A stretch of 64,000 nt of DNA from Haliotis cracherodii (taxonomy: Eukaryota), in the NCBI RefSeq assembly GCF_022045235.1, contig NW_027266286.1, forward strand, positions 64,666,001 to 64,730,000. Reading direction: 5' to 3'. The notes beneath the pieces were generated by a model. That model did no database searches, was not told the origin of the DNA, and saw only the letters and a program-made list of their open reading frames with translations. A program made the translations under genes and the position numbers. Within the stretch, counting starts at the first letter, position 1, and each line of letters starts with the position of its first letter. Shown here piece by piece: positions 19,953-33,135 of this stretch.

Positions 19953-20075
19953 ATGTCGGACATGTCATATGACCTCCTCTCCTCGGACTTGGAAGAGTCC
20001 GCAGACTTCATCGCTCTCAGTTTCAACATCGCTGACCCCTTGTGGAGGGAACGAGTGTATCGCGAGGACGAGTGA
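19953..20075 (+). pseudogene. 5'-only LIM-homeobox pseudogene (first 30 codons, then WRERVYREDE-stop)
   Basis: Encodes MSDMSYDLLSSDLEESADFIALSFNIADPL, then jumps at GTG (20042-20044) into spacer sequence seen at 23660. Confidence 0.9.
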
Positions 20076-20961
20076 TTAGTGTTGTGACAAGCTCATCACA
20101 ATGATTAGCACTTACCTGGTTGCTGACATTGTTTCATCAAACGTTACCGCGCTTTCATCACAGTGAGCAGAGCAATGACTATGTTTACACAGGTGATTAC
20201 AGGTCTCGTCCGACGTTTTAATAAAGGAAAAACGTTAGACATGCATAAGGAACGAACGTTGAAGTTTTCGAATGGATGAACTATATTGAAAAAAAGAGCG
20301 TCCACTTCACAAATATTATATGACATATTCACAGATAGATTGAATAATTAGCTCCATTGATTTGATTATTTCTGTTTAAATGGGATTTATTAAAGTCAGA
20401 TTGAAATGGTAATTATTTCGTCGTTTCTGTCCCAATTACATGTAGTTTTTTACAGGATGCATAGTTCTTGTTTTTAAATAAACGATTGGATCTATTTGTC
20501 TCATTCTGGAACATAAGGTGAATGGCTTTGCTATTACAATTATCATAGACAGAAAATGAAATCACTTTGACAACATGATTGTATTTCGTCTACAGCGTTC
20601 CGCGGGTTATCAACATATGTTCATCATTAATCTGTCAGAAAGCATTTAACAGTTATACTTACACAGTAGTCAGCTGAGGTTTAACTAGTGATTGCTGAAG
20701 TAACAGAAGATTAAACTCATCTTATGAAAATACCAAATGATCATTATATGTTTCTTTCAAATAAGGACATGATATTGTCTGTCAATTGATTGCTCTTTAT
20801 TGGACTTGTCTGTTCAGTGAGCTGTGATCACATCGTCTTAGTGACCAGTCAGCTCTAACAAAACAACATGTTCATCACGTGATTGTTACGGCGACACCTG
20901 CTAAATACGGCGCCATCATCATGAGTACCTAGACACGCGATTACGCGTCATCATGACACTC

Positions 20962-21024
20962 TCGTTCACTCAGAGTTGCCAAGCCAACATATAAATCACA
21001 AGCTGTTTTGTGCTGTCGACATTC
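20962..21024 (+). promoter_or_regulatory. L2 core promoter: TCGTTCACTC, TATAAA (20990-20995), Inr-like ACATT ~21021
   Basis: TATA-Inr spacing ~30 bp; same motif at 24584, 28208 and 31819 for L3-L5. Confidence 0.7.
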
Positions 21025-21094
21025 CATCTTTCATCATCTTCATCAAGTCACAACATCACAAGTCTTCCTCTAGCTCCTCCTGTCCACCTTCACA

Positions 21095-29274: not shown

Positions 29275-29415
29275 ATGATACATGAAATGTTCACTTCCTT
29301 CATGATCTGTCGATCTGACCTCGGGATGATCGTAGAAGAAGCGGGTCTTCCGAGAAGAGTAGTCCATGTGTGGTTCCAGAATGCGCGTGCTAAGCTCAAG
29401 AGAACCATGCACTGA
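29275..29415 (+). pseudogene. Homeobox 3' fragment micro-ORF, copy 3
   Basis: MIHEMFTSFMICRSDLGMIVEEAGLPRRVVHVWFQNARAKLKRTMH. Confidence 0.85.
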
Positions 29416-31951
29416 ACTTTCGAGTCACTATGTTAGCTACTGCTTCATGTGTATGTTGTGATGAGTCCCGGTTATTTGTATTCACTGTAGAAGTCAGCCA
29501 CATCTATTTATCTATTGATTTTGCATACATACAAATCAATGAAACATGATGTATTCCCTTTTTGTCCGTCTTACCTTGGTAGTTCCCGTGTGTACGTGAT
29601 AATCACAAAAGAACAAACCAGTTAACCTGTTAACCGCAATATATGATAATCAGGTTTTGCAGTTGTCTGTTGTTGCATAAAAATATGTTCTGCTCCAACA
29701 TGTAGTCTTTGTAAATATTGATTGAAGCCGACGAACAACTATGTATTGTCCCATTTAGTATCGACTCTGTGATCTGTCAGTAGATTTTTAATTCTCTTTA
29801 AACATTGATGTACTTTGTATTTCACACGTGTGTGTGTCTTGTTTTTATGTCATACATATATTTATTGTTTATAAAAAAATATAATACTGCTAAATAGTCT
29901 TCGTCGTGTGTGAGTGAGATAGGTTTCACGCCGCTTTCAGCAATATTCCCGCAATATCACGACAGAGGACACCAAAAATGGGCTTCGCGTGTCGTATTCG
30001 TGTGGGCAATCGACCCAGAGCCCTCGGTGAGTTTGACAATGTTTTTTGTTATTGTATAGGTCATTACCGTGTATCCTGTTTGTATGCCAATTTATATTGA
30101 CTGTTAAATATAATTATTTAAAGTTATGGCAACTTTTCTTCCTTTTCATACAAATGCTCAGCCACGTCATAACCAACAACAGTACAACAGCAACGTCAAC
30201 GTTGCCATCGTCGTCATTCCAACGTTCTGTGTCATAAGAACGCGTTGTCTCCGCCACATTGGCGCCGAACAATGGTATATTAAGATATGTCATATGTTAT
30301 GTTATATTATTCATATTGATATGCAATGAAATACAAATGATTCTATGGCATTTGATTGAAAAAAAAGCAACATTCTTACTAAACATCCTTATTTGTTTAT
30401 GTTTTCATTAACTGAAAAAGCATGAGTGCACGCCAACTAACGGACTACCGTTTCTTGATTGGTTATTAATAGAACAGGGCAGCTTGTGTTGCATTATTGT
30501 CGTAGAACGAAGTCGCTGATTTCGCATTGTTGAGTTTGTTTCTGTTCATTATTAAATAAGCACTCTTGAAGTTGATTTCGGTGACATATTTATTTGTAAG
30601 AATTTACTTTAATTTCTTTTTGTGTTGTTGATTGAGGTGGAGTGGGGTGGAGTGGATTGGAGTGTCCACACGCAGAAATAGTGAAGTTCATTCTTGAATT
30701 AAGCAAAGATCGTGCCCCAACACTGTCATACACCAACATTGATAGGTGAAGCAAAACACTGTTACTGCACTTCAGAGGATTTAGTACCAGGATTTATTCC
30801 AGTCATGANNNNNNNNNNNNNNNNNNNNNNNNNNNNNNNNNNNNNNNNNNNNNNNNNNNNNNNNNNNNNNNNNNNNNNNNNNNNNNNNNNNNNNNNNNNN
30901 NNNNNNNNNNNNNNNNNNNNNNNNNNNNNNNNNNNNNNNNNNNNNNNNNTGGAGGGAACGAGTGTATCACGAGGACGCGTGATCAGTGTTGTGACAAGCT
31001 CATCACAATGATTAGCAATTACCTGGTTGCTGACATTTTTTTATCAAACGTTCTCGCGCTCTCATCACAGTGAGCAATGAAAAAACGTTAGACATGCATA
31101 AAGAACGAACGTTGAAGTTTTCGAATGGATGAATTTTATTCAGAAAAAGAGCGTCCACTTCACAAATATTATATGACATATTCACAGATAGATTGAATAA
31201 TTAGCCTCCATTGATTTGATTATTTCTGTTTAAATGGGATTTATTAAAGTCAGATTGAAATGGTGATAATTTCGTCGTTTCTCTCCCAATTACACGTAGT
31301 TTTTTACAGGATGCATAGTTCTTGTTTTTAAATAAACAATAGAATCTATTTGTCTCATTCTTGAACATAAGGTAAATGGCTTTGCTATTACAATTATCAT
31401 AGACAGAAAATGAAATCACTTTGACAACATGATTGTATTTCGTCTACAGCGTTCCGCGGGTTATCAACATATGTTCATCATTAATCTGTCAGAAAGCATT
31501 TAACAGTTATACTTACACAGTAGTCAGCTGAGGTTTAACTAGTGATTGCTGAAGTAACAGAAGATTAAACTCATCTTATCAAAATACCAAATGATCATTA
31601 TATGTTTCTTTCAAATAAGGACATGATATTGTCTGTCAATTGATTGCTCTTCATTGGACTTGTCTGTTAAGTGAGCTGTGATCACATTGTCTTAGTGACC
31701 AATCAGCACTAACAAAACAACAGCATGTTCATCACGTGATTGTTACGGCGACACCTGCTAAATACGGCGCCATCATCATGAGTACCTAGACACGCGATTA
31801 CGCGTCATCATGACACTCTCGTTCACTCAAAGTTGCCAAGCCAACATATAAATCACAAGCTGTTTTGTGCCGTCGACATTCCATCTTTCATCATCTTCAT
31901 CAAGTCACAACATCAAAAGTCTTCCTCTACCTCCTCCTGTCCACCTTCACA

Positions 31952-32614
31952 ATGTCGGACATGTCATATGACCTCCTCTCCTCGGACTTGGAAGAGTCCG
32001 CAGACTTCATCGCTCTCAGTTTCAACATCGCTGACCCCTTGTGTTTCACGTGTTGTGACATGATCACTGACCAGTACTATCTACGTGCTCGGGATCACGT
32101 GTGGCACGAGCACTGTCTGCGTTGCTGTGTGTGTCAGGTGACGCTTGGTGGACATTCTTCCTGCTTCGTCAAGGACGGAAACATATTCTGTCAGAGAGAC
32201 TTCGCCCACATTCACGAGACCAAGTGTAGTTCTTGTCTACGTCCCATCGAGTCCGGAGATTGGGTCAGATCGGCCGGAGAGAACATGTACCACCTGGCAT
32301 GTTTCTCATGCAGCATGTGTCAAAGACAACTTTCCACAGGAGAAGACTTCGCCATCCTAGACGACCGCCTACGTTGCCGAGTCCACGTCCTCAACCCCGA
32401 CGACGAGAATGTCACCTGTCGACCAAAGTCCAAGAGATTCCGAACAGCTTTCAACGAGGACCAGGTAGCTGTTTTACAGAAGTACTTCGACATTGACACC
32501 AACCCAACCGGAAGTGACCTCGGAATGATCGCAGAAGAGGCGGGTCTTCCCAGAAGAGTAGCCCAAGTGTGGTTCCAGAATGCACGAGCTAAACTCAAGA
32601 GAACCATGCACTGA
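31952..32614 (+). CDS. Awh: L5: intronless LIM-homeobox protein, Arrowhead/Lhx6/8-like, 220 aa
   Basis: Intact ORF; ATG at 31952 by homology (the track's 31865 start is a TTG). Confidence 0.9.
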   Translation: MSDMSYDLLSSDLEESADFIALSFNIADPLCFTCCDMITDQYYLRARDHVWHEHCLRCCVCQVTLGGHSSCFVKDGNIFCQRDFAHIHETKCSSCLRPIESGDWVRSAGENMYHLACFSCSMCQRQLSTGEDFAILDDRLRCRVHVLNPDDENVTCRPKSKRFRTAFNEDQVAVLQKYFDIDTNPTGSDLGMIAEEAGLPRRVAQVWFQNARAKLKRTMH

Positions 32615-33135
32615 ACTTTCAAGTCCCTGTTTCAGCTAGTGCTCAATATGTATGCTGTGATGAATCCTGATTATTCGTAATTATTGTAGAAGTCTGTCAT
32701 ATATATTCATATTATTTATTGCATTCTACATACAAATAAATGATAATGAAATAGCCATTTTGTTTATTTCATGGTATGTCGGTCACTGTAGGTTGCAGAC
32801 TGTTCCCTGACTATAAAGCCTGGATAGATTAGTCTGATGGATAGTCAGACACATCTATTAATCTCTTTTATCATACAAAACTGGCTCCCACAGGACATAT
32901 CGCTTAGGTGAAATCAAGCTATATCTACATTGTAGATGTCACTACAATGAAATTGCATCACAATGCTTTGCAGACCATTGTGATGTCATTGGGTATCAAT
33001 ACTTTCTGGTAATACATGTAGTCTTTGTGAATAATTATTGAATATAAGGAGCAAACCCATTTTCATAATTTAAAAAAAATCCCTGTTAGAATATTTTCTG
33101 GTACCACACGTAGTCTTTGTGAATAATGAATAAGC

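Follow-up and report, generated by a model that had tools for sequence, protein, structure and literature searches.

A tandem array within a nine-copy cluster of intronless Lhx6/8-type homeobox genes in the abalone Haliotis cracherodii

A tandem array of LIM-homeobox genes

The window analysed here, a 64,000-nucleotide stretch of a 76.75-Mb contig of Haliotis cracherodii, contains a tandem repeat formed by three complete head-to-tail units and one half unit, each with one intronless open reading frame (ORF) of 220 codons. A sequence-only reading of the window had proposed head-to-tail units of ~3.62 kb, and the unit starts and lengths collected in Table 1 bear this out. In self-BLAST, 20042-27203 aligns with 23660-30807 at 96.8% identity over 7197 columns, and 20043-22027 aligns with 30950-32879, in the half unit, at 92.3%. 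Counting substitutions only, units 1 and 2 differ at 87 of 3604 positions, units 1 and 3 at 121 of 3508 and units 2 and 3 at 74 of 3519. The complete units are 2.1-3.5% apart on this count, with several indels besides, in agreement with the scattered single-nucleotide differences and indels reported earlier.

Starting from the 5′ side, a unit consists of a head, the gene and a 3′ flank, followed in the three complete units by the 3′ stub of an older homeobox copy, fragments of two dispersed repeats, the first similar to a short interspersed element (SINE), and a GT microsatellite position, occupied by N in the third unit. The stub, the SINE and the microsatellite had all been noted before and are confirmed. 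The stub differs from each of six intact copies compared at 10-15 of 102 bases. Unit 4 has no stub, no SINE and no tail; its 3′ flank lies 12-14% from those of units 1-3, and its head and ORF just 2-4%. The N-run of unit 3 is 141 bp long; the corresponding microsatellite and junction take up 79 bp in unit 1 and 85 bp in unit 2. Within the window an assembly gap and a mask look alike, so the N-run neither shows nor excludes hidden units. The suggestion that more units are collapsed there finds no support in the whole assembly, where the unit head occurs four times and the unit tail three times, every one at the array locus.

A repeat of this kind could also be an artefact, with haplotypes of one locus stitched in series during assembly. 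Abalones are highly heterozygous, according to the available text of PMC12627906, one unit junction coincides with the N-run, and raw-read run X18 gives depth in just 12 of 30 bins, mostly dispersed repeats, from which no copy number is readable. However, four mutually different copies exceed the two haplotypes of one unit, the right flank continues from unit 4 only, which does not fit a stitch of two plus two, and two unit junctions are free of N. In run X1, variants characteristic of different units are present among the DNA contigs, whose depth is 2.2-3.6 over the left flank, 10.4-17.6 over the head, 8.0-10.6 just past the gene and 4.8-7.0 over the tail, where three copies would predict more; contig depth is not copy number, and the run is possibly related to the assembly itself. 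Mainly because of the sequence anatomy and the multi-copy sets in three other Haliotis assemblies (see below), we consider an artefact highly improbable.

Each ORF encodes two LIM domains (LIM1, ~amino acids (aa) 31-83; LIM2, 92-145) and a homeodomain (160-219), as assigned by Pfam, and ends one residue past the homeodomain, without a C-terminal tail. The gene had been described as an intronless homeobox gene, which holds for the introns, absent where a spliced relative has three, but the two LIM domains had been missed. Solved structures matching the array protein are the LIM pairs of Isl1, Lhx3, Lhx4 and LMO. Among the matches listed, the nearest database proteins are Haliotis 'LIM/homeobox protein Awh-like', and nearly all of the best 120 of 469 homologues carry the name Awh, Lhx6/8 or Lhx8, the remainder being unnamed or generic. 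The homeodomain is 53% identical to that of the spliced Awh gene and 38-40% identical to those of three other LIM-homeobox genes of this genome. On these listed homologues and homeodomain identities, the array gene is classed as LIM class, Lhx6/8 (Arrowhead/Awh) type.

Across 27 family proteins, 15 of 16 zinc ligands are invariant, and homeodomain residues K2, R3, R5, F8, F20, V47, W48, F49, Q50, N51, R53, A54 and K55 are the same in all 27. Lhx proteins use their tandem LIM pair to bind the LDB/Chip cofactor, and the genome has one LDB LIM-interaction domain. The array proteins are predicted to bind TAAT-type sites through the Q50 homeodomain and LDB/Chip through the LIM pair.

All four units have a TATA-like box at -105 and an AATAAA signal at +121, so the promoter and 3′ untranslated region previously marked in each unit are matched by motifs, as sequence-based labels only. 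The 9-mer CGTTCACTC occurs ten times in the window, every time 117-280 bp before a LIM-homeobox start. It is common to eight of the nine intact genes described below and to a 5′ stub, at ~120-130 bp upstream, usually with a TATA-like box 25-30 bp after it; the copies share it through common descent, yet it has outlasted much of the surrounding sequence. Just before the 9-mer lies a GTCA-nnn-TGAC inverted repeat (20945-20960 and equivalents), less perfect in other copies, whose layout we take to resemble that of an oestrogen response element. A 163-bp tandem duplication at 45563-45882 doubles the upstream motif of the 223-aa gene in Table 1.

The wider cluster and its relatives

Nine intact intronless copies form a cluster over 29 kb of the window (17482-46659), with the strand order - + + + + - + - +, and the 3.6-kb array is its youngest part. 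The extent given in the first reading, 20042-32880, describes the array but overlooked five further intact copies and the 5′ stub just outside it. Eight copies encode proteins of 220 aa, with 92-100% identity to that of unit 1, and the ninth encodes a protein of 223 aa at 75%. A tenth intronless relative, of 259 aa, lies ~115 kb upstream of the window; it is 38% identical to the array protein, 42% to the spliced gene and 97-99% to its orthologues in three other Haliotis species.

Contig C19 carries the spliced Lhx6/8 gene, which has five coding exons, with introns after aa 33, 94, 164 and 260, and is 98% conserved between two Haliotis species. Its protein shares 49% identity and a similar acidic N-terminal motif with the array protein but runs ~45 residues longer at the C terminus. 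The first three of its introns map to ~aa 25, 86 and 148 of the array ORF, which is intron-free there, and this absence points to retroposition. A single origin of the cluster and the 259-aa gene has a tree support of 61, which neither establishes nor rejects it, and the two may descend from one or two retroposition events. Abalones have at least three kinds of Awh-like gene (spliced, 259-aa and cluster), the genome search having scored the best candidates only, so that all counts of relatives are lower bounds.

Other Haliotis species carry comparable sets, with at least five copies in H. rubra, at least six in H. asinina and at least five in H. rufescens, each set on one contig and with accession numbers close together. 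A 90%-identity protein cluster has 27 members, 19 of them named, and the 12 named members that are listed comprise four for each of the three species. A protein from the same 76.75-Mb contig as the window carries the H. cracherodii label. The 223-aa type is represented by one protein in every one of the four species. In a quick tree, made like our other trees by a quick search without bootstrap, support is 98 for a 223-aa group that crosses species, 82 for a mixture of this genome's 220-aa copies with H. rufescens ones, and 93 for a group of the four unit genes and a single H. rufescens protein. These groupings imply that the cluster is older than the split of the four species, while the 220-aa type keeps turning over. 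Farther afield, none of the best 150 of 6998 matches, which are 50%-identity representatives among which the cluster's own relatives have no separate entries, exceeds 57% identity, a result of little weight for the distribution beyond Haliotis; two unnamed ENA proteins at ~69% suggest a range that may be wider than Haliotis. Among the runs listed as holding the stretch, none is recorded as RNA, and eleven DNA runs, nine from a second organism, hold 0.28-0.47 of the words; three probable RNA runs of the best-matching species label have a share of 0.00, which carries no weight.

Two further observations concern the surroundings of these genes. An intronless Olig-like bHLH ORF of 229 aa lies 13 kb from the cluster (window 4017-4706, - strand), and in H. 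rufescens an Olig2-like gene follows soon after the Awh-like genes in accession order, matching it. On contig C19, two divergent spliced LIM-homeobox genes face each other at ~4.086-4.099 Mb (L005, 3350-6378, +; L006, 4038-6416, -). They best resemble the gene in L003/L004, which we take to be Lhx3/4-like, and represent a second LIM-class duplication in the genome.

Table 1 Features of the array, the cluster and the 259-aa relative (window positions unless another locus is named)
Feature	Position	Strand	Details
Unit 1	20042..23659	+	3618 bp
Unit 2	23660..27288	+	3629 bp
Unit 3	27289..30949	+	3661 bp, of which 141 are N (30809-30949, microsatellite position)
Unit 4, partial	30950..32880	+	Start 30949/30950, end ~32880; head, gene and 3′ flank
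LIM-LIM-homeodomain ORF, unit 1	21095..21757	+	Intronless, 220 aa
LIM-LIM-homeodomain ORF, unit 2	24717..25379	+	Intronless, 220 aa
LIM-LIM-homeodomain ORF, unit 3	28341..29003	+	Intronless, 220 aa
LIM-LIM-homeodomain ORF, unit 4	31952..32614	+	Intronless, 220 aa
Upstream 9-mer CGTTCACTC (-132) and TATA-like box (-105)	20963..20996	+	Unit 1
3′ stub of older homeobox copy	22074..22304	+	aa 188-220 and 3′ flank; repeated at 25690 and 29314
SINE-like dispersed repeat fragment	22665..22788	+	Equivalents in units 2 and 3; ~80% to other window copies
Second dispersed repeat fragment	23150..23395	.	69-82% to copies on many contigs
GT/GTGC microsatellite at unit end	23598..23646	+	Also 27221-27275; N in unit 3
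5′ stub of another copy	19953..20042	+	Codons 1-30, own upstream motif; cut where unit 1 starts
Intact paralogue outside array	17482..18144	-	220 aa, 96% to unit 1 protein
Intact paralogue	36058..36720	-	220 aa counted from the matching ATG, 92%; no 9-mer
Intact paralogue	38688..39350	+	220 aa, 94%
Intact paralogue	42161..42823	-	220 aa, 92%
Divergent paralogue	45988..46659	+	223 aa, 75% to unit 1
259-aa Awh-like gene	L001:4059-4838, contig C23	-	Intronless

Elsewhere in the window we identified a 65-bp AT-rich satellite of ~26 copies at 88% (53061-54804), a tRNA-Asp(GTC) called by ARAGORN (51367-51438, - strand), and a long degenerate CA-rich tract (12317-13985) with two N-runs of 345 and 176 bp. 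A further N-run of 175 bp lies at 40505-40679, and small tandem duplications are found at 62934-63379 (two copies of 222 bp), 39703-39935 (two of 113 bp) and 2555-2822 (eleven of 24 bp).

Selection, exchange and expression

The cluster copies are under purifying selection. For the eight 220-aa copies, the ratio of nonsynonymous to synonymous substitution rates (dN/dS) falls within 0.08-0.32 in each of the 28 pairs. The pairs are not independent of each other; the test gives p<=0.0005 in 27 of them, the exception being units 1 and 2, with five differences only.

Sequence has been exchanged among the units and with their inverted neighbours, as two tests support statistically. The unit that departs from the other two changes along the repeat. 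It is unit 1 over 20043-20530 (25 of 34 sites) and over 21711-23300 (34 of 52), and unit 3 over 20531-21710 (28 of 34) and 23301-23575 (13 of 17). The borders of this patchwork were picked by eye, but the runs test is free of boundaries and finds 47 runs over 137 informative sites, where shuffling gives 83+-5 (p=5e-5). In addition, 12 of the 35 variable sites of the unit ORFs vary, with both alleles, in the four 220-aa copies outside the array, where 5.6 are expected after stratification by degeneracy and CpG (p=0.003). These signs of exchange make variation in copy number likely.

The anatomy and the selection data also bear on whether the 3.6-kb expansion is a neutral by-product of recombination in a redundant cluster, in a gene family that is itself still important. 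Every complete unit carries along a dead stub and two repeat fragments, the stubs at 19953 and 22074 record births and deaths of copies, and five other intact copies are present. On the other hand, all four unit genes are intact and have dN/dS of 0.12-0.19 among themselves, a signal that is perhaps partly inherited through conversion. We regard neutrality as a serious possibility, somewhat short of an even chance, and it can hold together with the explanation proposed below.

Expression was approached through two sister runs from one study of a related organism, both probably RNA. Contig depth in run X16 is 131-779 on the ORF and 0-3.6 on the unit head; sequence outside the coding region may align poorly or not at all between species. 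The ORF contigs of X16 comprise several distinct variants, one with a 3′ end like that of the copy at 36058. In run X17, depth on the ORF is 4.3-7.5, ~100-fold lower than in X16, and depth in the SINE bins is similar. The contrast points to strong, condition-restricted transcription.

Six upstream stretches of 500 bp, taken as promoters, contain 16 TGATTA/G sites in all, compared with 0.66 for a background window, an enrichment to be read in light of the homology of these promoters, the choice of the motif from four tried, its overlap with the generic CCAAT box and a background that is not promoter sequence. Autoregulation through these sites is only a lead.

Vertebrate Lhx8 is an oocyte factor, and heritable retroposition requires mRNA in the germline or early embryo. 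A function of the cluster in the oocyte or early embryo may be put at roughly an even bet. In the available text of 10.1101/2025.08.18.670794, an 'Awh-like' gene ranks in the top 50 for change as the ovary of H. laevigata matures, a set in which most genes rise.

Origin, function and comparison with known arrays

We propose, as a rather probable account, that the array is the youngest expansion in a nine-gene Lhx6/8 cluster under purifying selection, likely founded by a retrocopy, likely enlarged by unequal crossing-over and likely to supply a high, stage-restricted dose of the transcription factor, most probably in the oocyte or early embryo. A spliced Lhx6/8 mRNA would have been retroposed. 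The copy would have lacked three coding introns and the C-terminal tail and acquired a TATA-type promoter. The multi-copy state, with both the 220-aa and the 223-aa types, preceded the split of H. rubra, H. asinina, H. rufescens and H. cracherodii, as their homologues show. The anatomy suggests that the substrate of the array was two older same-strand copies 3.6 kb apart, one of the type of units 1-3 and one of the type of unit 4, and that unequal crossing-over between them would have added a head, gene, stub and tail at every event. The divergence of the 3′ flank of unit 4, compared with that of its head and ORF, fits such a crossing-over of two older direct copies. Exchange among the units and with the inverted neighbours completes the account, with the statistical support given above.

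Several points weigh against this account. No poly(A) tract was found, the longest A run within 600 bp being 3-8, so that with no surviving poly(A) the case for retroposition is made by intron absence. A clade of the cluster with gastropod Awh was rejected in one approximately unbiased test (p-AU 0.033) and not rejected in two others (0.256 and 0.358), the three having used different rows and models. In the trees the cluster joins divergent Lhx6/8 paralogues of oyster and mussel, with support of 86-92 and long branches. The variants shared between array and neighbours could partly be old polymorphism instead of conversion, and no acidic DUX4-like tail follows the abalone homeodomain. The RNA status of X16 and X17, which are unlabelled for tissue or stage, is guessed, and contig depth is a poor measure of expression. 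The available text of the H. laevigata ovary study (10.1101/2025.08.18.670794) names no particular Awh-like paralogue. Furthermore, as far as the available texts go, the canonical role of these genes lies in apical neurons, in the larva for oyster awh2 (PMC10396302) and likewise for Nematostella Lhx6/8 (PMC2828406).

The bivalve genes may indicate a different source. The divergent paralogues are Mytilus P0290-P0302 and P0198 and oyster P0011 and P0049. The tree row Cvirginica_Awh2 is of the divergent type called Awh1 in PMC5322547. Lhx6/8 paralogues in four Mytilus species have neighbouring accessions and are apparently paired. The bivalve paralogues and the abalone cluster, which sits on a long stem branch, share some homeodomain changes, and the cluster may descend from an older second molluscan paralogue. 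In the supplement of PMC5322547, file 1 lying outside the search, no stage expression of oyster Awh1 was found.

The apical-neuron markers favour a variant with the same origin and structure in which the additional dose would be used later, by a cell type of the larva or adult and near the ancestral Awh role (apical neurons, ciliary band, shell field or metamorphosis), and the 100-fold contrast between X16 and X17 would fit any contrast of stage or tissue. However, the ancestral role is already covered, since the conserved spliced gene is present, and the depth in X16 would hardly come from a few neurons; we think such a later role unlikely. Alternatively, the copies may act mainly as competitors, with tail-less proteins titrating LDB/Chip or occupying Lhx sites and so damping other LIM-homeodomain factors. 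An ORF that stops right past the homeodomain, where the spliced protein continues, the conserved LIM zinc ligands and the high copy number, which suits titration, are as expected for competitors, whereas none of the 27 proteins departs from the shared DNA-contact residues, and the copies retain an acidic N-terminal motif resembling the one in the spliced protein. Competition as the main function is quite improbable, although it is compatible with the oocyte or early-embryo explanation that we prefer.

Similar to D4Z4/DUX4 and rodent Dux, the abalone array has one intronless, retrogene-like homeobox gene per tandem unit of 3-4 kb, with exchange between units, and the likeness to D4Z4/DUX4 drawn in the sequence-only reading survives as a broad analogy to DUX-type arrays. 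Its placement in the macrosatellite class does not. The available text of PMC13558733 describes D4Z4 as subtelomeric, with 8 to >100 units in healthy people, and DUX4 as having two homeodomains and a C-terminal activation domain; ~320 CpG per 3.3 kb are given for D4Z4 in that of PMC10620044. In contrast, the abalone array has 3.5 units, embedded among inverted paralogues, and 127-134 CpG per unit, which at 3.6-3.7 per 100 bases (GC 40%) matches the window average of 3.73. It lies at 64.69 Mb, 12 Mb from the contig end, and its protein is of the LIM class, with one homeodomain and no C-terminal tail.

A second parallel is with the OBOX and ETCHbox clusters of mammals, which are likewise fast-diverged, multi-copy, lineage-restricted homeobox clusters with pseudogene fragments, and whose genes act in zygotic genome activation according to the available text of PMC13558733. 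Those genes are of the PRD-like class, whereas the abalone genes are LIM class and their early-embryo expression is only inferred. The cluster could be an independent LIM-class activator in the style of DUX and OBOX, that is, a recombining, copy-number-variable set of Lhx6/8 retrogenes that would burst at the maternal-to-zygotic transition of spiral cleavage and possibly reinforce itself through the TGATT sites of its promoters, which is a speculative and rather doubtful extension of the proposal.

Within the Lhx6/8 (Awh) subfamily, the abalone proteins conform in their LIM-LIM-homeodomain layout, Q50 homeodomain and similar N-terminal motif, but not in number. The available texts give one copy in fly and worm, two in mammals (PMC2828406) and two in oyster (PMC5322547), whereas the abalone has one spliced gene and at least ten intronless copies; against the usual one or two members of this subfamily, it is the expansion that stands out. 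It joins other homeobox expansions of molluscs, such as the lophotrochozoan TALE and PRD clades and the divergent Awh1 of oyster. The novel lophotrochozoan clades are mostly TALE and PRD, and the sole LIM clade comes from parasitic flatworms, as far as the available text of PMC5322547 shows. We found no description of a Haliotis Lhx6/8 cluster in the literature searched, with subscription papers mostly beyond reach, and the word 'homeobox' is absent from the main text of PMC12627906. The genes are known individually as RefSeq 'Awh-like' annotations, but the cluster is apparently undescribed.

Ten intronless Lhx6/8-type copies, nine of them clustered, present across Haliotis and still expanding, are an unusual departure for LIM-homeobox subfamilies, which normally have one or two members. 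The number of units would offer a structural-variant marker for farmed and wild abalones. If the genes are active in the egg or during cleavage, the cluster would be a concrete candidate for a starter of zygotic transcription in a spiralian, and it would represent a convergence with the mammalian DUX and OBOX arrays from a different homeobox class.

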